From contig NZ_FPBK01000015.1 of NCBI RefSeq assembly GCF_900116665.1, positions 1 through 64,000 on the forward strand: a stretch of 64,000 bases of DNA, read 5' to 3'. The notes beneath the pieces were generated by a model. The model had not been told where the DNA came from. It saw nothing but the letters and a program-made list of their open reading frames with translations, and searched no databases. Each line of letters opens with the position of its first letter. The stretch's first letter is position 1. Both the position numbers and the translations under genes were made by a program. Positions 26,760 to 55,959 of this stretch are shown piece by piece. The stretch is from Pustulibacterium marinum. GTDB taxonomy: Bacteria; Bacteroidota; Bacteroidia; Flavobacteriales; Flavobacteriaceae.

Positions 26760-27296
26760 ATGGGGACAGTCATAGATTGCTTTATACCTAAAGAAAAAAC
26801 ATACACTATTGAAGAACTGAATAGCATGTTAAGAGCTGTATATTTTGATTGTATGCTTGAGTATGAAAGCTTAGAAAAGTTGGGAAACTATTCGGAGGGT
26901 TTTCATGGTGAATGGTCATTTGAAAATGTAGAGGAAAGTTCAGAGAATTGTACATATATTACAGGTGAAGGCGGTAGTTTTTTTGTAGATATTTATGAAC
27001 ATGTGATTCATATTTGTTGTCTGGAAAGATTTTCTAATCTATATATTGAATTTTCCCCTATTTCTAGAGCTTTGTTGGTTATTTTTAAAGAATTGTGCAA
27101 GACACTGGCTCCAGAAAATACCCAAATGCTTTTGGTAATTGGAGGGAATGGAGAAACCGATGAAATACTAGATAGAATTGCTGAAAACCAAGTTACCATG
27201 CAAGATATTATGGCTGGTTTAGAATCGTTATTTTCTGATCCTGCAAGAATGCCTTCGGATCTAATAGAAAAAAACTGGCTGTTAACTTCTTTATAG
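26760..27296 (+). CDS. hypothetical cytoplasmic protein
   Basis: 178 aa with no recognisable motif. It converges on the XRE regulator with a 6-nt overlap. Confidence 0.4.
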   Translation: MGTVIDCFIPKEKTYTIEELNSMLRAVYFDCMLEYESLEKLGNYSEGFHGEWSFENVEESSENCTYITGEGGSFFVDIYEHVIHICCLERFSNLYIEFSPISRALLVIFKELCKTLAPENTQMLLVIGGNGETDEILDRIAENQVTMQDIMAGLESLFSDPARMPSDLIEKNWLLTSL

Positions 27297-28061
27297 TTTA
27301 TCCTTTAACTTTAAGAATTCCTGCTCTAAGAAACTAAGTTTTTCTTTAATATCCTCAGCTCCGCTATTCGTTTTAATCTCTGGAATTCTGTGATAAAAAC
27401 AATACCGTATTTTCCATAGCATTTGAATATCTTTCAAACTCAGCGTTATATCTTCAATACTTTTATGATCCGCTCTAAGAATTACCTTTTTATCAGTAAG
27501 ATAGAATCGTCTTAAAATTACTTTTTGATTTGCAATCACAACTACAATACTTCCATTAGGAATCTTTTTAAAAACATCTTTTGGAATCAATTCTCCAATG
27601 ACCACATCTTTAGGAAAAAGACCATGATCATGGTCGGTCATTTCAAGATTTTGAACTGTATAACCTAGAAATTCTTTTTGAGTATGTAAAGGAAGTTGGA
27701 GACAAGGAAGTGTTTCCATAAACTCAGGATTTTCAAAGTTATTCAGAAAGTCAGCCTCATTTCTTTCCGTAATACAAGGTATCGATTTGAATTTCTCCTT
27801 TAGTTTTTCTTCTACATTTAAAGATAAATCTCCTTGAAACTTTAGTAATTTATTTACCGTAAGTTCTTTGGTTAGTAAATCGTCTACAGTGATGCTAAAA
27901 TAATTAGCTATTTTTAGTAAGGTATCTATTTTTGGTTCACTTCGTCCTTCTTCATAAGCACCTAGTGTACCACGTTTTAGATCAAAAACATCGGCAAAAG
28001 CTTGCTGACTCATGTTCTTTACATTTCTAATCTTCCTAATATTTTTACCAAAAAAAGACAT
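27291..28061 (-). CDS. XRE-family HTH transcriptional regulator with a LexA/CI-like (S24-fold) C-terminal domain
   Basis: The N-terminal HTH_3 is NMSQQAFADVFDLKRGTLGAYEEGRSEPKIDTLLKIANYFSITVDDLL. The C-terminal beta-rich segment GSIVVVIANQKVILRRFY...KVILRADH has an S24-like pattern. The catalytic Ser-Lys dyad is not obvious, which suggests a non-autocleaving repressor. Confidence 0.6.
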   Translation of the reverse strand: MSFFGKNIRKIRNVKNMSQQAFADVFDLKRGTLGAYEEGRSEPKIDTLLKIANYFSITVDDLLTKELTVNKLLKFQGDLSLNVEEKLKEKFKSIPCITERNEADFLNNFENPEFMETLPCLQLPLHTQKEFLGYTVQNLEMTDHDHGLFPKDVVIGELIPKDVFKKIPNGSIVVVIANQKVILRRFYLTDKKVILRADHKSIEDITLSLKDIQMLWKIRYCFYHRIPEIKTNSGAEDIKEKLSFLEQEFLKLKDKL

Positions 28062-28332: not shown

Positions 28333-28728
28333 ATGAAAGATCATTTTCAAATCACTAAAAACTATGTATTAGAACTCAACTTTACTATAACTTACGAAAG
28401 CCGCGAAGAAGAAGTGCTGGTAGTACAAAAAGAAGCCTTTGGAATCAAAAACCTGATTATTGGTGTAGCAGCTCCTATATTAATTATGGAGCAGTTTATT
28501 TTCAACATCAACAGTCAAAACGAAAAGGTGTTCAGAAACCTGTTACAGAAGAATCGTGATATTATTCATGGAGCGTTTTGTTTAGATGAAAGTGGTAAAC
28601 GCGTTATTTTCAGAGATACATTACAAATTGAAAATTTAGACCTCAACGAACTCAAGGGTTCGCTAAACTCATTAAGTTTATTAATGAGTGAATACTCAGA
28701 TAAGATTATTGAATTCTCAAAATATTAA
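28333..28728 (+). CDS. hypothetical protein, possibly YbjN-like, first gene of a PspA-flotillin operon
   Basis: 131 aa, cytoplasmic, mixed alpha/beta. Its stop is 11 nt before the pspA-like start. The YbjN assignment is a weak guess. Confidence 0.4.
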   Translation: MKDHFQITKNYVLELNFTITYESREEEVLVVQKEAFGIKNLIIGVAAPILIMEQFIFNINSQNEKVFRNLLQKNRDIIHGAFCLDESGKRVIFRDTLQIENLDLNELKGSLNSLSLLMSEYSDKIIEFSKY

Positions 28729-28739
28729 AGCCATCGATT

Positions 28740-29450
28740 ATGAACCTATTTAAAAGACTATTTAAAATTGGAGAAGCAGAAGCAAATTCTGCTATAGATA
28801 AAATGGAAGACCCTATCAAAATGACTGAACAGGGAATCCGCGATATGAAACAAGATCTTGAAAAAAGCTTGGAGGCTTTGGCACAAGTAAAAGCCATGTC
28901 TATTCGTTCAAAAAATGAACAGGAAGAGTATCAAGATAAAGCAGCTGATTATCAAAGTAAAGCGATTTTAATTTTGAAAAAGGCTGAAAAAGGAGATATG
29001 GAAACTGCAGAAGCAGATAGATTAGCACAACAGGCATTGATCAAAAAACAAGAGTCAGATCAACAAGCTGAGCGTGCAAAATTAGAAGCTAGTAAATTTG
29101 ATGATTCCATTGCACAACTGGAGAAAAACATTCAGAATATAAAAGCAAGTATCAGCAATTGGGAAAACGAATTGCGTACGCTAAAAGCAAGAGTAAAAGT
29201 ATCCAATGCTACCAAAAACCTGAACAAGCAAATGGCAGAGATTGATAGCAGTAGTACCGTTTCTATGTTAGAACGTATGAAAGAGAAAGTAGCCCAGGAA
29301 GAAGCGTTGGCAGAAGCTTACGGAGATATTGCAAATACTTCTAAATCTGTAGATGACGAATTAAATGCAGCCGTAGATACTACCGAAGCAAAAGCTACAG
29401 ACGATTTAGCAAAATTAAAACAACAATTAGGACTTAATAAACAGGAGTAA
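28740..29450 (+). CDS. pspA: PspA/IM30/Vipp1 family protein (ESCRT-III-like)
   Basis: MNLFKRLFKIGEAEANSAIDKMEDPIKMTEQGIRDMKQDLEKS aligns with the E. coli PspA N-terminus ([43 protein letters not shown]). Entirely coiled-coil. 236 aa. Confidence 0.8.
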   Translation: MNLFKRLFKIGEAEANSAIDKMEDPIKMTEQGIRDMKQDLEKSLEALAQVKAMSIRSKNEQEEYQDKAADYQSKAILILKKAEKGDMETAEADRLAQQALIKKQESDQQAERAKLEASKFDDSIAQLEKNIQNIKASISNWENELRTLKARVKVSNATKNLNKQMAEIDSSSTVSMLERMKEKVAQEEALAEAYGDIANTSKSVDDELNAAVDTTEAKATDDLAKLKQQLGLNKQE

Positions 29451-29452
29451 CC

Positions 29453-30163
29453 TTGAGCAACATAGGTCATATTATATTTTCAGAGGTAAATATAACCCTT
29501 ACCATTCTAATGCTTTTGCTGATCGTCTATTGGATTTTAACCATGGTCAGCGGCATTGACTTTGACTACGATGTAGACATCGATATAGATTTGGATGTAG
29601 ACGTAGATGCAGATGCGGGCATAGAAGGTGGAAATATGGATTTTCAGGATATCTCAAACGCAGAGGTAGACAAAGAGCAAGTAATAGGCAACAGAAGACA
29701 ACCGCTAAAGTGGTGGCAAATTGTGCTCATCTATTTCAACTTTGTAGGGCTACCATTTATGTTCACCTTTACCGCCTGGATTTTTATCTGGTGGTTTGCA
29801 ACAGTACTCATTACCAAATTAACGGGTAGCTATGAAAATGCCTTTGGCTTTGTAGTGATGCTTGGAGCCATGATTCCAGCATTGTTTGTTACCAAAATAT
29901 TTACAACTCCTTTTAAAGGATTCTTCAAGAATCTAAATAAAGACGGCGACAAGGCTGTGGAATATTTGGGCAGAACCGGAATCATGTTGTCTAGTATAGA
30001 AGGTGAACGCATGGGAAATGCCGAAGTCACAATCAACGGAGATTCGTATAACATTTATGTAAAGTCGTTAGACGGATCACCCTTGAAATACCAACAAAAA
30101 ATATTAATCATCAACCAGTCTGCAGACAAGAACTCTTTTCTTGTTCAGGCGTATAACAACTAA
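29453..30163 (+). CDS. NfeD-like (YqiJ-like) membrane protein with C-terminal OB-fold and an acidic (D-V/I)n tract
   Basis: Three TM helices. A DFDYDVDIDIDLDVDVDADAG acidic repeat lies after TM1. The C-terminal beta-rich GNAEVTINGDSYNIYVKS...KILIINQSADKNSFLVQ is typical of the NfeD OB domain. Starts 3 nt after the pspA stop and lies immediately upstream of the flotillin gene, as in yqiJK-type operons. Confidence 0.7.
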   Translation: MSNIGHIIFSEVNITLTILMLLLIVYWILTMVSGIDFDYDVDIDIDLDVDVDADAGIEGGNMDFQDISNAEVDKEQVIGNRRQPLKWWQIVLIYFNFVGLPFMFTFTAWIFIWWFATVLITKLTGSYENAFGFVVMLGAMIPALFVTKIFTTPFKGFFKNLNKDGDKAVEYLGRTGIMLSSIEGERMGNAEVTINGDSYNIYVKSLDGSPLKYQQKILIINQSADKNSFLVQAYNN

Positions 30164-30179
30164 ATAACTTTAATAACCA

Positions 30180-32270
30180 ATGGGAGAAATTTTATCAATT
30201 ATCGGAATGGGTGTAGGGCTTGTTCTGTTTTTGATAGTGGTATATTTTGCCATTATCGCAATGTTTTACAAAAAGGTACATCAGGGACAAGCCTTGGTAC
30301 GTACCGGATTTGGAGGAACCAAAGTAGCAACCGACAAAGGTTTGTACGTGGTGCCGGTTTTCCACAGAGTGGAAGTAATGGATATTTCAGTAAAGAAAAT
30401 TCAAATTGAACGTTTATCGCACGAAGGCTTAATCTGTAAAGACAACATGCGTGCAGATATCAAAGTAGCATTTTTCGTTCGTGTCAACAACGATGTTAAT
30501 TTTATAAAGAAAGTAGCGCAAACCATTGGGGTTGCGAGAGCTTCTCGTATAGAAACTTTGGAAGATTTGTTTGAAGCAAAATTCTCAGAGGCCTTGAAAA
30601 CCGTAGGGAAAAAGTTCGATTTTATTGAATTGTACGAAGCACGTCGTGAATTCCGTGATGAGATTGTAGACATCATCGGTACCGATTTAAACGGATATAC
30701 CTTAGAAGATTGTGCTATTGACTTTTTAGAGCAAACGCCTATTTCGCACTTAAAAGCTGATAACATTTTAGATGCAGAAGGTATTAAAAAGATCACGGAG
30801 CTTACGGCAAATCAAAATGTAAAAGCCAACTTAATCAAACGTGATGAAGAGAAAACCATTCGCAAGCAAGATGTCGAAGCACGCGAAGCGATTCTGGCGT
30901 TAGACAAACAATTGGCTGAAAAAGAAGAGCAACAAAAACGTGAGATTGCCAACATCAAGGCTCGTGAAGAAGCAGAAACCTTGAAAGTAGCCGAAGAAGA
31001 GCGTTTAAAATCAGAATCTGCAAGAATTGCTACGGAAGAAAAAGTAAAAGTAGCCGAAGAAAACATGCAACGTCAAATCATTGTAGCTGCTAAAAATAAA
31101 GAGCGTACCAATGCTATTGAAAACGAGCGTGTAGAAAAAGACAGAATGTTAGAAGCTACCGAAAGAGAACGCGTGGTAACACTGGCTCAGATAGAAAAAG
31201 AGAAAGTAGTAGAGGTAGAGAAGAAGAACATTCAAGATGTGATCAGAGACCGCGTGATGTTAGAAAAAGGCGTGGTAGAAGAGCAAGAAAGCATGAAAGA
31301 TATTGAAGCTTTCAAAACTGCTGATCGTGAGAAGAAAGTGAAGATTACCAATGCCGAAGCGAAAGCGCAGGAAGAATTGATCAAAACTATCAAAGAAGCT
31401 GAAGCGAAGAAAGAAGCAGCAAAACAACGTGCCGAAGAAATCAATATCGAAGCAATGGCGCGCAAAGAAGCCAGCGAAAAAGAAGCCGAAGCACGCAAAA
31501 CATTGGCAGAAGCCAAAGCGAAAGAAGAAGCCATTATTGGTATGTCTGAAGCGCAGGTAATGCATGCAAAAGCAGATGCTAGCGAACGTCAGGGAATTGT
31601 AGATGCATCGATCATTGAGAAGAAAGCAAAAGCCGAAGCTGCAGGAATCGAAGCAAAAGCACAAGCCGAATTGAAAGAAGGAAAAGCACAAGCCGAAGTT
31701 ATCAAAGACAAAGCCTTGGCCGATGCTGCCGGAATTGAAGAAAAAGCGGCTGCCATGAAGAAACTAGACGGTGTTGGTAAAGAACATGAAGAGTTCAAAC
31801 TACGTTTAGATAAAGAATTACAGGTAGACTTGGCAAACATTAATATTCAAAAAGAGATTGCAGACGCACAAGCCTTGGTATTGAGCGATGCCTTGAAAAA
31901 CTCGAAAATTGATATTGTGGGTGGAGAAACCATGTTCTTCGATCAAATTGTTGGACAAATTACCAGAGGTAAAGGAATCGACAGATTGGTACAGAACAGT
32001 GAAAACATTCAGCAAGTAAAAGATTCTATCTTAGGCAGCGATGACATTCAGGGAAACTTACTTGAAAAAGTAAAAGAGTTTTCTGCTAAGTATGGCATCT
32101 CTTCAGAAGACCTAAAGAACTTTACCATCGCTAATTTGTTGATGGATCTTAAAAAGAAATCTAACAGTGACAAAGAACACACCATGTTCAACAATTTGTT
32201 AAACCTGGCACAAGGCTTAGGATTGTCCGATAAAACTGTTGGAAGTATCAAAAGAGAACATTTAAAATAA
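30180..32270 (+). CDS. flotillin / SPFH (band-7) family protein, YqiK/FloT-like, extended
   Basis: N-terminal TM helix. The SPFH domain is ...ALVRTGFGGTKVATDKGLYVVPVFHRVEVMDISVKKIQIE.... A long EA-rich coiled coil follows (KAREEAETLKVAEEERLK...AEAKAQEEL...) and a C-terminal flotillin tail. 696 aa, longer than typical bacterial flotillins. Confidence 0.85.
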   Translation: MGEILSIIGMGVGLVLFLIVVYFAIIAMFYKKVHQGQALVRTGFGGTKVATDKGLYVVPVFHRVEVMDISVKKIQIERLSHEGLICKDNMRADIKVAFFVRVNNDVNFIKKVAQTIGVARASRIETLEDLFEAKFSEALKTVGKKFDFIELYEARREFRDEIVDIIGTDLNGYTLEDCAIDFLEQTPISHLKADNILDAEGIKKITELTANQNVKANLIKRDEEKTIRKQDVEAREAILALDKQLAEKEEQQKREIANIKAREEAETLKVAEEERLKSESARIATEEKVKVAEENMQRQIIVAAKNKERTNAIENERVEKDRMLEATERERVVTLAQIEKEKVVEVEKKNIQDVIRDRVMLEKGVVEEQESMKDIEAFKTADREKKVKITNAEAKAQEELIKTIKEAEAKKEAAKQRAEEINIEAMARKEASEKEAEARKTLAEAKAKEEAIIGMSEAQVMHAKADASERQGIVDASIIEKKAKAEAAGIEAKAQAELKEGKAQAEVIKDKALADAAGIEEKAAAMKKLDGVGKEHEEFKLRLDKELQVDLANINIQKEIADAQALVLSDALKNSKIDIVGGETMFFDQIVGQITRGKGIDRLVQNSENIQQVKDSILGSDDIQGNLLEKVKEFSAKYGISSEDLKNFTIANLLMDLKKKSNSDKEHTMFNNLLNLAQGLGLSDKTVGSIKREHLK

Positions 32271-32387
32271 GGGTTGGGGAATCCTGTTGCATGTTACGCC
32301 TGGCCTCCGGGTTGGGAGTAGCATGCTATATTTTGAATGTGAATACTAACAGGAAACTTTTAAAATCGAAAGTTTCCGTTTACCGTT

Positions 32388-35300
32388 ATGAATTTACGTA
32401 TGCAAGAAGAAGATAAAAAACAACCTGATGCGCAAGTGCTCGAAGGCGGAACCTATGAGATTATTCAGGGCCGTTTGCAAAAGCAAAAGCAGGATCTTCA
32501 GCAACGCTTACAACGGTTAAATGAAGATCGTAAAAAGGTATTTGGTTCGTTAGAAACCAAACTGTTGGCCAACAATCGCGTCAGTACAGAAAACAATTGT
32601 ATTACCCGCGACATTGTTACCATAGAATCCTATTGCATTTTTGGCTATAATGTGCATTTCGGACTGCGAACAGAGATTACACTGTCCGATGTGTTCAGTA
32701 TTTATCAGTACCAGGAGCAGCAATTTAAAACGGTGGATTTATCGTTGTTACAAGACGAAACCTTTATCACCGATTTTACGAATCTTTATAAATACTATCG
32801 CAATACCATATTTGCTAAGTTCTCTGTTATTGGGAATTACCTCTATATGGTGTTTCAATTAAGCGATAGTGTAACCGATATCAAAGCGTTTAAATGGTTG
32901 ATCAAAGATGGGCAATTGCACTACATTGACAACCGAAGCGACCATGAGGTAAAATATCCTGCGCAGCACGAATTTAAATGGTTGGAAGCAGGCCGCGATA
33001 ATCAGCGTTACGGCGAACATGCCCATGTTTCCATTTTAGATAAGGTTTTTGTAGAAACCATTGGTGGCGATCTTACCATTAAGGTGGAAGACAATACCAA
33101 CGACGGACAAGGGATTTATTCCGAACCTGTTGAAATGGTAGATCAAACCCTGGATGACGGACAATTCCGTTATGCAGACTTGGGTAACTTGATTGCATTA
33201 GAGATCAAACCCTTTCAGGAGGCACCCCGCTATTTTGTCTACAATCACAAGATCAAAGAGGTGCAAAAGATTGAGAGCATCAAGGAAGCCGCCATCTTAT
33301 TACCGGACGAACAGGGGATTATTTTCCCGAATGGCTATTATTTACAAACCGGAGAGTATCAGGTTTTTGATAGCGATACCGATAACCTGAAGTTTTTAAA
33401 ACGCATTGCTTCGCCAAATGGGGAAGATTACCTGTTTGTGTTCTACGGAGCTGCTTTGGGCACTTATGTCCTCATGCAATACAACGTTATTGAGCAAACC
33501 GTGCAAACACCTATCATTTGTAATGGTTTTACCATTCATGGGAATGGTGAATTGTGCTACTTTAAACAGGAAGAAGAGCAAACCAAACACCACATGATGC
33601 AGATTTGGCAAACACCTTTCTTAAAAGGAGATATTATGCCGTCTCAGCATCAAGATACCTTGTTGTACAAGATAGGGAATAAGGATATTGTGCGTGCTAT
33701 GGCCGAGTCTCAGGAGTTGATCAACTTGTTAAGCAAAGAAGATTCCTATAGCGGATTGTATGCAGACATTGCCAAGCTTTCCAAAGACATTTTAGATGCC
33801 TATTATTGGTTAACGGAGGAAGAAACCCAGCAATTAAAACTGCCCTTAGCAGAGATCAACAAAGCTGCGAATGCCGCTATTGATGAGTTTGCCAAAGTGG
33901 TACAATTAAAGAAGACTGCCGGAAAAGAAACCGAAGTATTACAAGGCAAAGCCGATGCTGTTTTTGGCAAGGTGAAAAGCACTTCCTTTAAATCGATTGA
34001 CGATTTTGTGTTGTTGCTCAACCAATTGCGAACATTGCGTGGCGAAGCCATTGGTTTGTACGAGATCAGGTATGTAGATACGCAATTTATCAAAGGGATA
34101 GAGGAAGAAATCGCCGCACATACCCAAAAAATATCAGAGCGTTGTGTGCAGTTTTTGCTAGACGACAAAGCTTTGGCTCCATATCATGAAAGAGTAGCCG
34201 AAAAAGAGCAGCACTTAGCCGAAATTCACAAAGTAATCGATGCTAAAAAGCTGGAAGAAGAGGTAAATCAGATTGCGAACGATCTGGAGATGTTAATCGA
34301 TATTGTTTCCAATCTTTCTATTGAAGATACTTCGCACTCTACCAAGATTATTGACAATATTTCGTTGATTTTCGCCACTTTAAATCAGTTAAAGGCGGGC
34401 ATTAAAAACAAACGCAAGTCACTGGGTAGCAAAGAAGCCAAAGCCGATTTTGTAGCACAGTTAAAACTGGCCGATCAAAGTATCATCAATTACTTAGATA
34501 TTGCTGATACGGTGGAGAAGTGTGATGAATTTCAAACGAAGATCACCATTCAGTTAGAAGAGCTGGAAGGGAAGTTTGCCGATTACGAAGAATTCATTGC
34601 ACAGATCATTGAAAAGCGCGAAGAGGTGTACAATGCCTTTGAAGGCAGAAAAACCGCCATTGCAGAAAAGCGTAACAAAAAGAGTTTAGCGCTGGAGAAT
34701 GCCGCCGATCGTATTTTAAAAGGAGTTGACAAACGAGCGCAAAGCTTGGGCAGCAACACCGAGATCAATGGGTATTTTGCTTCGGATTTAATGGTGAACA
34801 AGTTGCGCGATATTGTGCAGCAGTTAAAAGAATTAGACGATACCGGAAGGGCCGAAGAAATAGAAACCAAGCTAAAAGTGGCCCGCGAGGATGCCTTACG
34901 CAAGTTAAAAGACAAACTTGAGTTGTACGAAGACGGTGATAAGGTGATCAAGTTTGGGAAACATAAGTTTGGGGTTAACAAGCAGGTGTTAGACCTTACC
35001 ATTGTGTACAAAAATAATAGTTTGCAGTACCATTTAACCGGAACCGACTTTTACGAAACGGTAACCGACAAAACCTTGTTGAATTCCCGCCAGTTATGGG
35101 AACAGGAATATATTTCGGAGAACAATGCCGTGTATCGTAGTGCCTATTTGGCGTATAAATTGTTTACCAGCATTCCTTCCGAAGTCTTGGAAAACGCTAC
35201 TTCCGAAGAATTGTTAAAGATAGTGCAGGAAGAGAGCAGCAGTAATTATTCCGAAGGGTATATCAAAGGCGTGCACGATGTTGATGCAGCCGCTATTTTG

Positions 35301-37274
35301 GAAACCTTGGTGAAAAAGCATGCCAAATTGGGCTTGTTAAGCTTTGATCCGCAGGTGAGAGCCGCTGCACAATTCTTTTGGCATAGTTTAGATACCGAAG
35401 TACAACAGAATTATGACGAATTACTCAAAGCTTCGGGCGCTGTACTCAGCATTTTTCCGGAGTCTAGAGAGTATGAGTTCTTATTGTTAGAGCTTACAGA
35501 TTATATAGCTGATTTTTCGGTGGAATCTGGTTTGTTTGCTGAAGAACTCAGCGCTGAGGTGGCTACGTATTTGTTTGACGAACTCAAAACTGATGCTACG
35601 TTTATGGTCAGTGGCGATGCTTTGAAGCTAAAAGAAGATTTTCTAAAAGCTTTACAAAGCAAACAGGCCGACCTTCAGTTTAGAAACAGTTATGAGAAGC
35701 TCAGCAACTTTGAAGCGCAGGTACGTTTGGTGCGCCAATGGGTAACTTCCTTCATCAAATCGCATCAAAATGAATATGATGTGGCGTATGCTGATGAGGT
35801 GGTGTGTACTTTGTTGTTTGATACCAAAGCGGTACAGAAAAACACCTATGCGCCAGCCACTACGGTGATAGAAGGACTGAAGGGAGACCATGCCAGCATT
35901 AACGATGGTGTGTATGCGTTCAATTACCATGCGTTCACGCGTTTGTTGGCTACGTATGTGGCCGAAACAGTGCCGGCATTTCAGGAATTTAAAAAGGCAA
36001 AACACGAAGTCACCGAAACTTTGAAAGCCGAACTGAAATTACAAGAGTTAAAACCTAGAGTATTGACGTCTTTTGTGCGTAACAAGCTCATAGACCAGGT
36101 ATACTTGCCGTTGTTTGGCGATAATTTGGCCAAACAATTGGGTACGGTGGGCGATAACAAACGTACCGACCGTATGGGAATGCTCTTATTACTGTCGCCA
36201 CCCGGATACGGAAAAACAACCTTGATGGAATACATGGCCAACCGTTTGGGCTTGGTGTTTATGAAGATTAACGGACCCGCTATTGGTCATGAAGTAACCT
36301 CGGTAGACCCGGCATCGGCTACTAATTCTGCGGCACGCGAAGAGTTAAAGAAACTCAACCTTGCTTTAGAGATGGGCAACAATGTAATGCTGTATTTAGA
36401 TGATATTCAGCATTGCAATCCGGAGTTTTTACAGAAGTTTATTTCGCTTTCCGATGGTACCCGTCGTATAGAAGGGGTGTACAAAGAGAAACCCAAAACC
36501 TACGACCTGCGTGGGAAGAAGTTTTGTGTAATTATGGCCGGAAACCCGTATACCGAAAGCGGTGAAAAGTTCCGTATACCCGATATGTTGGCCAACCGTG
36601 CCGATATTTACAATCTGGGTGACATTATTGGCGATACCGCACATTTGTTTAAACTTAGTTTGATAGAGAATGCGTTGACATCGAACCCGGTGTTGCAGCA
36701 ATTGAGCAGTAAGTATTTTGACGATGTGTACAAATTGCTAGATAAGGTAGAAAACAAAAATCTGGAGGTGCAACTAGAGGGCAACCACACCACGCAAGAG
36801 ATAGAAGAGTACGTAGCGGTGATAGAAAAGGTGGTTACCATACGCAATACGGTGTTAAAGGTGAACGAAACCTATATAAAATCGGCTGCGATGGAAGACG
36901 AATACCGTACCGAACCTTCGTTTAAACTGCAAGGCTCGTATAGAGATATGAACAAACTGGTAAGCAAGGTAGTACCTATTATGAATGAGGCCGAATTGCA
37001 GCGCCTGTTGCTATCGCATTACGAGAGTGAGTCGCAAACCTTAACCTCGGCTGCCGAAGCCAACCTGTTAAAGTACAAAGAACTCATAGGTGAGCTCAAT
37101 ACCACCGAGCAAGACCGTTGGGACAGTATTAAAGTAACGTTTCAGAAAAACAACAAGCTCAAAGGCTTTGGAAACCAAAACGAAATGGCACAAGTACTTA
37201 CCCAAATGATGGCTTTTACCGATAATCTGGAAGGCATTAAAAAAGTATTAGAACAAGGACTCAAAAACGAGTAA
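32388..37274 (+). CDS. giant (1,628-aa) multidomain protein: aromatic/Cys-rich N-terminal globular region, ~800-aa coiled coil, C-terminal AAA_5 (MoxR/dynein-like) P-loop ATPase
   Basis: Walker A LLLLSPPGYGKTTL (nt ~36200-36223). Walker B VMLYLDDIQ. Sensor-1 FCVIMAGNPYTE. A putative Arg finger in IPDMLANRADIY. This pattern matches AAA_5/MoxR (DEINRA...ATQNP). Residues ~430-1230 are heptad-rich and helical. Residues ~60-420 are rich in Y/F/W/C (ESYCIFGYNVHFG, ICNGFTIHGNGELCYF). A strong terminator follows. Confidence 0.75.
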   Translation: MNLRMQEEDKKQPDAQVLEGGTYEIIQGRLQKQKQDLQQRLQRLNEDRKKVFGSLETKLLANNRVSTENNCITRDIVTIESYCIFGYNVHFGLRTEITLSDVFSIYQYQEQQFKTVDLSLLQDETFITDFTNLYKYYRNTIFAKFSVIGNYLYMVFQLSDSVTDIKAFKWLIKDGQLHYIDNRSDHEVKYPAQHEFKWLEAGRDNQRYGEHAHVSILDKVFVETIGGDLTIKVEDNTNDGQGIYSEPVEMVDQTLDDGQFRYADLGNLIALEIKPFQEAPRYFVYNHKIKEVQKIESIKEAAILLPDEQGIIFPNGYYLQTGEYQVFDSDTDNLKFLKRIASPNGEDYLFVFYGAALGTYVLMQYNVIEQTVQTPIICNGFTIHGNGELCYFKQEEEQTKHHMMQIWQTPFLKGDIMPSQHQDTLLYKIGNKDIVRAMAESQELINLLSKEDSYSGLYADIAKLSKDILDAYYWLTEEETQQLKLPLAEINKAANAAIDEFAKVVQLKKTAGKETEVLQGKADAVFGKVKSTSFKSIDDFVLLLNQLRTLRGEAIGLYEIRYVDTQFIKGIEEEIAAHTQKISERCVQFLLDDKALAPYHERVAEKEQHLAEIHKVIDAKKLEEEVNQIANDLEMLIDIVSNLSIEDTSHSTKIIDNISLIFATLNQLKAGIKNKRKSLGSKEAKADFVAQLKLADQSIINYLDIADTVEKCDEFQTKITIQLEELEGKFADYEEFIAQIIEKREEVYNAFEGRKTAIAEKRNKKSLALENAADRILKGVDKRAQSLGSNTEINGYFASDLMVNKLRDIVQQLKELDDTGRAEEIETKLKVAREDALRKLKDKLELYEDGDKVIKFGKHKFGVNKQVLDLTIVYKNNSLQYHLTGTDFYETVTDKTLLNSRQLWEQEYISENNAVYRSAYLAYKLFTSIPSEVLENATSEELLKIVQEESSSNYSEGYIKGVHDVDAAAILETLVKKHAKLGLLSFDPQVRAAAQFFWHSLDTEVQQNYDELLKASGAVLSIFPESREYEFLLLELTDYIADFSVESGLFAEELSAEVATYLFDELKTDATFMVSGDALKLKEDFLKALQSKQADLQFRNSYEKLSNFEAQVRLVRQWVTSFIKSHQNEYDVAYADEVVCTLLFDTKAVQKNTYAPATTVIEGLKGDHASINDGVYAFNYHAFTRLLATYVAETVPAFQEFKKAKHEVTETLKAELKLQELKPRVLTSFVRNKLIDQVYLPLFGDNLAKQLGTVGDNKRTDRMGMLLLLSPPGYGKTTLMEYMANRLGLVFMKINGPAIGHEVTSVDPASATNSAAREELKKLNLALEMGNNVMLYLDDIQHCNPEFLQKFISLSDGTRRIEGVYKEKPKTYDLRGKKFCVIMAGNPYTESGEKFRIPDMLANRADIYNLGDIIGDTAHLFKLSLIENALTSNPVLQQLSSKYFDDVYKLLDKVENKNLEVQLEGNHTTQEIEEYVAVIEKVVTIRNTVLKVNETYIKSAAMEDEYRTEPSFKLQGSYRDMNKLVSKVVPIMNEAELQRLLLSHYESESQTLTSAAEANLLKYKELIGELNTTEQDRWDSIKVTFQKNNKLKGFGNQNEMAQVLTQMMAFTDNLEGIKKVLEQGLKNE

Positions 37275-39771: not shown

Positions 39772-39994
39772 TTTATTTATTAGTTAATAATAAGTTTTAC
39801 AAATGTAAGTATAAATGTGTTAAATTAACGTTTCTTTAATATTATTATACGTAAAAACTTATTTTACAACGTAGTCTATTGAGGTGAGGTGAGTGAGTTA
39901 AATCCTATATATAATTATACAATTTTTACCCTAAAACGTACCAATAAAAAACCGCTGCATACACAAGGCATACAGCGGTTGGGTTGGGTAGGGA

Positions 39995-44820: not shown

Positions 44821-44896
44821 AACGCTACTTTTGCTTTTTGAAACCTTATTGACCGCAAGCCATGCATTATCCCGAAACATGAATTGCTACTGTAAT

Positions 44897-45055
44897 AAGG
44901 CAGGTCTTCTGACTTGCATAAGCTTTGGCGTCTTCCCACCCTTATTAAAAGGATAGTGACAACAGTAGAGGCCAAGCTTTGTGATAGCTTACAGCTGCGG
45001 GAACAGTTTGGGAGTTACACCCAATTCCCTTTTCATTTAACACCCCCGAAAAGAG
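44897..45055 (-). ncRNA. cobalamin (AdoCbl) riboswitch upstream of nrdG-nrdD
   Basis: The minus-strand sequence reads aaaagggaattgggtgtaactcccaaactgttcccgcagctgtaagc...gtcactatcc...gggtgggaagacgccaaag...agtcagaagacctgcc. It shares the conserved GGGAA, GGTG, CCCGCAnCTGTAAG, B12-box-like and AGNCAGGAGACCTGCC elements with the second riboswitch at 55.7 kb. Confidence 0.75.
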
Positions 45056-45262
45056 CTGTTAAAACCTTACTACAGCTTAAAGATACAAACTAAAAAAGCC
45101 GGGGCGTTTCTAATAGGGATGGAGTTATAAACCGAGTTGTAAACAGTAGCGTCAATTTCTTTGGCCACAAAGAGTTATCCCTTTTCCAGAAAACGAGTCA
45201 ATGATTTTTGTTAGATTTCAGGAGTAGTGAGGTGTTTTTTATAAAAGTATGGGTTAAGCTTG

Positions 45263-55486: not shown

Positions 55487-55729
55487 GCAGTAAAGGTAAA
55501 AAAAACAAAAACTAACAAATGTCATTTTTAACTATAACGTTTTCGTTTACTTTTAAATAAAATTTAATGGTTATGCTAAGCGACGAAAAATACATTATGG
55601 TAACCGTGCTATTTTATATTATACTGCTTTTTTTTATTTTCTTAATCATGAAAATTACTGATAAAGAAGCGCACTAAATAGTAAGTGTTCATAGGTACAC
55701 AATACAGATATATTGTGTACCTTTGCCGA

Positions 55730-55915
55730 GAATTCGGGTTCTGAAGAAACCACAATTCAGGTTCACAGATTAAAAGGGAATTCGGTGTAATACCGAAGCT
55801 GTTCCCGCAACTGTAAGCGACGTTTTATTGATTGAAACGGTGTTTGTAACTACTTTGCCACTGGAGTTTTTCCGGGAAGGTAACAAACATACGCAAGCCA
55901 GGAGACCTGCCCGCA
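55730..55915 (+). ncRNA. cobalamin riboswitch upstream of a btuB-like TonB-dependent receptor
   Basis: ...ttaaaagggaattcggtgtaataccgaagctgttcccgcaactgtaagcgacg...ttgccactggagtttttccgggaaggtaacaa...caagccaggagacctgcccgc. Contains a canonical B12 box (GCCACTG), CCCGCAACTGTAAG and AGCCAGGAGACCTGCC. Confidence 0.85.
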
Positions 55916-55959
55916 TTCTGAAAATAGTAATTAGCCTTCGGGATAAAGGTTATAGGTTT

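Follow-up and report, generated by a model that had tools for sequence, protein, structure and literature searches.

The question raised by this locus is what a very large AAA+ protein does as the last product of an operon that also codes for a flotillin, a PspA protein and a YqiJ/YuaF-like membrane protein, when database records call most of its relatives DNA repair ATPases. The locus lies in a stretch of 64,000 nucleotides (nt) from Pustulibacterium marinum (Flavobacteriaceae; NCBI RefSeq assembly GCF_900116665.1, contig NZ_FPBK01000015.1, positions 1 to 64,000 of the forward strand), hereafter the window, and the gene in question codes for a protein of 1,628 amino acids (aa). By combining profile searches, structure models and comparisons of gene order, we found that this protein belongs to a large and already known family, that its single ATPase module is of the AAA_5 type, and that its gene is strictly linked to those of two membrane proteins, a flotillin with a membrane anchor and a YqiJ-like protein. 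Taken as a whole, the reading that it is an ATP-driven remodeller of flotillin/PspA membrane assemblies has, in our judgement, a slightly better than even chance of being right. Within that reading, the architecture and the partnership are near certain, and the mode of action is much less certain.

32388-37274, forward strand: the AAA gene, the whole open reading frame, coding for a 1,628-aa cytosolic protein; a single ATG-to-stop frame without a transmembrane (TM) segment
37287-37320, forward strand: a strong terminator-like hairpin of 15 pairs followed by a T run, which is probably the end of the operon

The frame is the one that an earlier note, made from the letters of this DNA and a list of its reading frames, had given for the gene. 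Its product is 100% identical to a GenBank entry of Pustulibacterium marinum annotated "AAA domain (dynein-related subfamily)". Three Pfam families match it above their cut-offs: DUF3686 (aa 36-473, 599.9 bits against a cut-off of 25, E 3e-180), DUF7902 (aa 594-678, 95.3 bits against 26, E 2.5e-27) and AAA_5 (PF07728; aa 1266-1390, 33.8 bits against 22). Homologues of the protein fall into more than 4,000 clusters at 90% identity (E <= 1e-10), and aa 1-1200 as the query found 922 clusters at 50% identity (E <= 1e-10). Matches over aa ~15-1198 are single and colinear in proteins of 1,600-1,900 aa, down to 26% identity, and the mean column identity of the full-length family alignment is 40%. The family spans at least five phyla, with named members in Bacteroidota, Gammaproteobacteria (Pseudomonas, Hahella, Reinekea, Paraglaciecola), Acidobacteriota, Planctomycetota and the genus Persicimonas, and the homologues are mostly labelled "DNA repair ATPase". 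The Dokdonia homologues are ~72% identical across 99% of the length and carry the same Pfam domains. In its domains as well as in its operon, the window protein therefore belongs to the family characterised by DUF3686 and DUF7902 together with an AAA module at the C-terminus.

The earlier note had thought of a new family of stalked AAA+ machines. This did not hold up given the DUF3686 and DUF7902 matches, the number of homologous clusters and a published account of both architecture and operon; the family is already known from Pfam and the literature. Ravi, Anantharaman, Aravind, Gennaro et al. (mSystems 2024, PMC11237479) described the same operon for Dokdonia donghaensis DSW-1, gave the ATPase as 'Betapropeller+Coiled-coil+AAA-ATPase' and proposed a role in sub-membrane dynamics. 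The gene order there is the same as in the window, including the divergent helix-turn-helix (HTH) and protease regulator (listed as 'cHTH+Protease' in their Table S3), and the window protein is an orthologue with nothing essential different. The same authors noted that some Proteobacteria have a phospholipase D (PLD) hydrolase and that there are shortened operons which lack PspA. Our literature searches found no paper naming DUF3686, DUF7902 or PF12458. What is added here beyond the published account is the clade of the AAA module, the division of the 'coiled-coil' into four structural units, the motifs of an alpha domain and the near-invariant domain lengths.

Two AlphaFold2 models, built with 44 diverse homologues, together cover the full chain: aa 1-900 with a predicted local distance difference test score (pLDDT) of 85.1, and aa 840-1628 with a pLDDT of 83.7 and a predicted template modelling score of 0.69. 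Neither contains a second alpha/beta P-loop region, which agrees with the single AAA module read earlier from the sequence. Conservation was judged from an alignment of 30 family members that are 29-49% identical to the window protein. The ATPase end of the chain resolves as follows.

36171-36614, forward strand: AAA+ alpha/beta core, aa 1262-1409, from Pfam, AlphaFold2 and the alignment
36195-36221, forward strand: Walker A, SPPGYGKTT, aa 1270-1278 (GYGKTT being aa 1273-1278, nt 36204-36221)
36390-36404, forward strand: Walker B, LYLDD, aa 1335-1339, whose acidic pair D1338/D1339 is an invariant Asp-Asp and not Asp-Glu
36465-36506, forward strand: pre-sensor-1 beta-hairpin, aa 1360-1373 (RIEGVY / KPKTYD), modelled as strands aa 1360-1365 and 1368-1373 between alpha3 and beta4
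36537-36548, forward strand: sensor 1, AGNP, aa 1384-1387, with N1386 invariant
36591-36611, forward strand: ANRADIY, aa 1402-1408, with R1404 invariant and at the end of alpha4
36615-36977, forward strand: helical region after beta5, aa 1410-1530 in the AlphaFold2 model, holding an invariant QGSYR (R1519) at a helix start
36978-37271, forward strand: C-terminal helices, aa 1531-1628, from AlphaFold2

Conservation is highest in the AAA+ core, where 43% of the columns are at least 90% conserved. Since G1273, K1276, T1277, D1338, D1339, N1386 and R1404 are invariant in the 30 family members, the motifs are under selection and not there by chance. All four motifs quoted in the earlier note stand in their places, GYGKTT having been given as nt 36200-36223. 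From Walker A through Walker B and sensor 1 to R1404, the motifs come in AAA+ order, and because they are invariant the module is likely to be catalytically competent. The Arg of ANRADIY, earlier called well placed for an arginine finger, sits at the finger position of AAA_5-type modules and is a putative finger. By its sequence pattern, R1519 of QGSYR is a candidate sensor 2, and the ~100 helical residues between beta5 and QGSYR are a candidate pre-sensor-2 insertion. The model places ~220 helical residues in all C-terminal to the core. The loop after beta2 (36258-36329, aa 1291-1314; consensus NGPALGHxVTSLDP) lacks an aromatic pore-loop residue. Both this and the Asp-Asp Walker B (36399-36404, aa 1338-1339) are unusual for a substrate-threading AAA+ protein.

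The module is of the AAA_5 or clade 7 type (MoxR, dynein, midasin, McrB). The AAA_5 profile aligns over its positions 2-126 of 139 in 4 of 4 proteins searched, that of the window and three distant homologues, with 28.3-36.8 bits against the cut-off of 22, and no other Pfam model covers the core in them. These scores lie above the gathering threshold, and the domain is AAA+. The model for MoxR proper, AAA_3, reaches 12.7 bits only. The closest structural matches of the ATPase module are CbbQ and NorQ, and the nearest solved structures belong to this clade; a Foldseek search was less discriminating. Sequence and profile searches of the PDB matched 35-60 residues round Walker A only (p97, RuvB and NVL; E ~1e-3 to 1e-4), from which no clade could be assigned, and the NCBIfam matches of the ATPase were at the P-loop level only. 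A conserved 18-residue segment between beta2 and alpha2 (aa 1296-1313) is modelled as coil and not as a helix-2-insert hairpin. We also considered the classic AAA clade (Vps4, p97, spastin, ClpB-D1; PF00004) and rejected it: the pre-sensor-1 hairpin is present, and PF00004 aligns only partially in the three distant homologues. The classic Vps4/p97 clade is not known to have such a hairpin. The earlier assignment to an AAA_5 type over a Vps4/ClpB type is thereby supported by the AAA_5 score and span, by the hairpin and by the invariant N1386 and R1404.

The genes upstream of the AAA gene, in the operon order CesT-like chaperone, PspA, YqiJ/YuaF-like protein, flotillin and ATPase last, are the following, together with a regulator on the other strand.

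27291-28061, reverse strand: divergent regulator with an HTH_3 and an S24-like domain, from Pfam and profile matches
28333-28728, forward strand: CesT/Tir-like chaperone, 131 aa (Pfam CesT_Tir_1, E 2.5e-54)
28740-29450, forward strand: PspA/IM30 protein of the ESCRT-III superfamily, 236 aa (Pfam PspA_IM30, E 2.7e-42)
29453-30163, forward strand: YqiJ/YuaF-like membrane protein of 236 aa that has three hydrophobic segments and, at its C-terminus, a beta-rich domain, named from topology and context and not from a profile match
30180-32270, forward strand: flotillin-like SPFH protein of 696 aa, anchored in the membrane by its N-terminus (TM aa 1-34; Pfam Band_7, E 6e-15)

TM segments are present in the flotillin and in the YqiJ-like protein, and there is none in the ATPase. 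The YqiJ-like protein had no match in Pfam (E up to 10) or among the NCBIfam models, and the flotillin-like protein had none in NCBIfam. Between its first two hydrophobic segments (aa ~36-56), the YqiJ-like protein carries an acidic alternating loop, DFDYDVDIDIDLDVDVDADAG.

Linkage was assessed in 71 related Flavobacteriia loci with full flanks, obtained by a single-sequence contig scan that returned nearly exclusively Flavobacteriaceae and one Echinicola, and in six distant loci (Pseudomonas indica, Sulfidibacter corallicola, Saccharobesus litoralis, a Bacteroidia metagenome-assembled genome and two further loci). For the Persicimonas homologue (P0346), a look-up of the encoding contig found none. 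The YqiJ-like, flotillin and AAA genes occur together in all 71 close loci, CesT and PspA in 60 of the 71 and the divergent regulator in 58. A flotillin-like gene lies directly upstream of the AAA gene in 71 of 71 close and 6 of 6 distant loci, and the distant flotillins are 45-58% identical to that of the window, compared with 35-47% for the ATPase over its N-terminal 1,200 residues. PspA is missing in five of the six distant loci; only Pseudomonas has it, together with a CesT-like DUF2170 gene. The ATPase is thus strictly linked to two membrane proteins, the anchored flotillin and the YqiJ-like protein. Links among PspA, band-7/FloT, NfeD and an HTH regulator were reported by Popp et al. in 2022.

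Some details of these loci may be added. In Pseudomonas indica (our locus L081, 13305-13997), a gene of the PLDc_2 type (HKD phospholipase D family) directly follows the ATPase, in agreement with PMC11237479, and the CesT-like gene is of the DUF2170/YjfI type. A neighbour gene in another locus (L086) gave a weak YqiJ_N match. The flotillin-AAA spacer measures 78-2167 nt in 79 related loci; in L004 and about 25 other related Flavobacteriia loci (~1/3), the two genes stand 0.6-2.2 kb apart, which leaves room for an inserted gene. A spacer hairpin was seen in four of five related loci inspected, two of them with a clear T run, and the AAA gene may be expressed by read-through or separately.

Before the ATPase, the chain is built from a propeller and a series of mostly helical units.

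32451-32543, forward strand: charged N-terminal helix, aa 22-52, from AlphaFold2, heptad-like by a home-made heptad score
32559-33611, forward strand: beta-propeller, aa 58-408, the DUF3686 core, all-beta with ~27 strands in AlphaFold2, also from Pfam and Foldseek
33660-34925, forward strand: helical region, aa 425-846, with 13 helices, holding DUF7902, from AlphaFold2 and Pfam
34944-35060, forward strand: small five-stranded beta domain, aa 853-891, in both AlphaFold2 models, with G857, F861 and T886 invariant
35136-35819, forward strand: globular all-alpha domain, aa 917-1144, with 11 short helices (<=23 aa), from AlphaFold2
35859-36140, forward strand: beta-hairpin aa 1158-1179 and linker helices aa 1180-1216 and 1233-1251, leading to the ATPase, from AlphaFold2

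The top Foldseek matches of the N-terminal model in the PDB include the beta-propellers of Elp1, CyRPA, prolyl oligopeptidase and WDR91, and the ~27 modelled strands suggest that the propeller probably has six to seven blades. The richness in Y, F, W and C that the earlier note had seen in the N-terminal region is real, with 14.8% in aa 60-430 against 6.8% in aa 430-880. The stalk fared less well. It had been described as a coiled coil of ~800 aa, and aa 425-846 are indeed helical, with the two quoted heptad-like peptides located at aa 483-509 and 725-753; the region is, however, made of 13 helices, the longest of 48 (aa 484-531), 58 (aa 648-705) and 52 residues (aa 734-785), and is not one coiled coil. 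Likewise, aa 430-1230 as a whole are folded and mostly helical, yet interrupted by two beta elements and by the globular alpha domain. A crude home-made heptad score (not COILS or Marcoil) flagged 34% of aa 431-880 and 10% of aa 881-1230. With pLDDT mostly 80-94, the middle region is not disordered, the case that the earlier note had named as one that would tell against its view. A weak profile match (E 0.008) relates the helical region to the Habc bundle of syntaxin-1A.

Domain lengths are nearly invariant in the 30 family sequences, the helical region varying between 417 and 427 aa, and this near constancy points to a rigid element of fixed geometry and not a plastic spacer. Searched as isolated segments, the alpha domain and the small beta domain had no Pfam match even at E up to 10. 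The alpha domain contains the motif YxEGYxKG[VI]HDxDA, conserved family-wide (aa 955-967, window 35250-35288), and a second motif, SExxxYRxEYLA (aa 910-922, window 35115-35153), lies just upstream of its first helix. R991, E1137 and H1168 are also conserved, the last in the hairpin after the domain. These residues could form an active site or a docking surface. The alpha domain is otherwise weakly conserved around its motifs.

If the protein is an ATP-driven remodeller of flotillin/PspA assemblies, its AAA+ modules would assemble into a ring, most likely a hexamer by analogy with CbbQ, NorQ and RavA. Arms made of the propeller and the helices would reach out from this ring and, at the inner face of the cytoplasmic membrane, attach to the flotillin assembly and also to PspA polymers wherever PspA occurs. 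The energy of ATP hydrolysis would be passed through the rigid, length-conserved helical and alpha domains, and the scaffolds would be assembled, reshaped or dismantled in envelope stress. Since the module resembles those of MoxR proteins and dynein and lacks an aromatic pore-loop motif, a lever-type, rigid-body remodelling appears more likely than threading of the Vps4/ClpB type. More tentatively, as an idea that we regard as possible and short of probable, the whole family may be the dedicated motor of bacterial flotillin cages and, where present, of PspA/ESCRT-III polymers, with a MoxR/dynein-type ring whose rigid, propeller-tipped arms of fixed length act as levers that open, close or dismantle them. 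If this is true, the lever mechanism fills the 'Vps4-like' role that reviews call missing in bacteria, and the YxEGYxKGVHDxDA alpha domain is a new coupling or catalytic element. The family bears on the question of how flotillin cages and PspA/ESCRT-III polymers are built up and taken apart under the control of the bacterial cell. Because it is large, present in several phyla and strictly linked to flotillin, it is the obvious candidate for the energy source that is missing there. The discovery value is small, as architecture and operon are already in Pfam and the literature; the lasting interest lies in a very large and widespread motor, locked to flotillin and filed under a misleading database name, and in a map of domains and motifs that supplies constructs and sites for mutants (K1276, D1338/D1339, R1404, R1519 and H963/D964/D966).

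Several observations weigh against this remodeller role. Gene linkage shows that the proteins work together and not what the ATPase does to them, and our literature searches found no experimental study of any family member. The Asp-Asp Walker B could mean slow hydrolysis or a switch-like role, and the AlphaFold2 model is weakest (pLDDT 58-64) near sensor 1 and the arginine finger. MoxR-type ATPases usually act with a VWA/MIDAS partner, and no VWA domain was found in the neighbours at the seven loci examined. Lastly, co-transcription of flotillin and ATPase is not assured, because in many relatives the two genes are set apart by a hairpin resembling a terminator or by a spacer of 0.6-2.2 kb.

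How the family compares with known systems bears on the alternatives. Vps4 acting on ESCRT-III offers one likeness: here, too, an AAA+ ATPase is genetically coupled to a protein of the ESCRT-III superfamily, PspA, and the proposed remodelling of a membrane polymer is the same. The window protein could accordingly be pictured as a bacterial Vps4 equivalent, a threading unfoldase that disassembles PspA polymers with flotillin only as a platform. PspA and the CesT-like chaperone in this operon, in 60 of the 71 Flavobacteriia loci and in Pseudomonas indica speak for it, as does a vacancy for the role, since a Vps4-like ATPase seems absent from bacteria according to a 2025 review (PMC7619361). Yet flotillin is always present at the distant loci and PspA is dispensable at most of them, the module belongs to another AAA clade, the Pfam search of the AAA protein showed no MIT domain, and the loop after beta2 is without the aromatic residue of a threading pore, so that we consider this explanation unlikely. 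FtsH with HflK/C offers a second likeness, as an AAA+ protein paired with an SPFH membrane scaffold and an NfeD-type partner; FtsH, however, is a membrane-anchored protease of the classic AAA clade inside its cage, whereas the window protein has neither a TM segment nor a protease domain. Dynein and midasin (Rea1/Mdn1) share the AAA_5-type module but are eukaryotic, with six concatenated modules and stalks that arise from within a module, in contrast to one module per chain and a helical part N-terminal to it. With CbbQ and NorQ as the closest structural matches, one may also think of a classical MoxR maturation chaperone, inserting cofactors or activating enzymes as CbbQ does for Rubisco and NorQ for nitric oxide reductase, unrelated to membrane scaffolds. 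The MoxR family (CbbQ, NorQ, RavA) consists of proteins of ~250-500 aa, however, and the ~1,260 additional N-terminal residues of the window protein have no counterpart there, nor do ~100 additional C-terminal ones. It further departs from MoxR proteins in its low AAA_3 score, in an Asp-Asp Walker B where they have Asp-Glu and in lacking the aromatic pore-loop residue after beta2 of a typical MoxR. At the loci examined, neither a VWA/MIDAS adaptor nor a candidate client enzyme is linked to it, and its tie to flotillin is strict. We regard a maturation chaperone as very unlikely.

Large multidomain ATPases are common in defence systems, and the protein might instead sense infection and trigger membrane effectors, either flotillin/PspA or the PLD-family hydrolase of proteobacterial versions. 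Such an anti-phage or conflict role could draw on the PLDc_2 hydrolase after the gene in Pseudomonas indica, on the phage-repressor-like HTH regulator that adjoins the operon, and on an AAA_15/AAA_21 ATPase and an Apyc1-like gene nearby in L086. A search of PADLOC-DB 2.0 returned for the ATPase one weak match to the P-loop core (mad8, E 0.0034), and the six neighbours had no significant match there, with marginal PspA matches of the coiled-coil type only (E >= 0.005). The synteny is stable over 71 Flavobacteriia genomes, which is untypical of mobile defence islands, and the other neighbours in the window are unrelated housekeeping genes, e.g., a TonB receptor and MsrA. We rate a defence role as unlikely too, a shade below the Vps4 equivalent. 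The role in DNA repair that most database records imply is the least probable of all and close to negligible. It is upheld by the name, both in NCBI product names and in the Pfam text for DUF3686 ("ATPase involved in DNA repair"), and by the LexA-like regulator next door. Profile searches detected no DNA-binding, nuclease or ABC/SMC-type ATPase domain, the ATPase fold is that of a MoxR-type AAA+ protein and not the split ABC head of SbcC, RecN or SMC, and there is no nuclease or repair gene among the window neighbours, the conserved ones all being membrane-associated proteins. The label probably goes back to a spurious coiled-coil similarity to proteins of the SbcC/RecN type and, widespread as it is, has no support.

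The S24/LexA-like domain of the regulator scored 22.7 bits, just below the Pfam cut-off of 23.3, and matched the lexA TIGRFAM with E 1.3e-5. Compared by eye with E. coli LexA, it appears to have other residues in place of the catalytic Ser and Lys (NLEMTD, VILRRF), and self-cleavage is doubtful for this reason; the apparent loss also tells against the repair role.

The spacer between flotillin and the AAA gene in the window (32271-32387) is peculiar in its own right. Its first ~60 bases are GC-rich in a genome of 36% GC and it holds two copies of GGGTTGGG (at 32271 and 32309), with a third copy at 39981, followed by a hairpin at 32352-32377. We considered the GC-rich segment as a conserved regulatory element and ruled this out, as it is not conserved in the related loci. 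An Rfam scan of the whole window gave no match in or near the operon; elsewhere, it identified two full-length cobalamin riboswitch aptamers (RF00174, 111 and 106 bits), at 44882-45084 on the reverse strand and at 55719-55928 on the forward strand.

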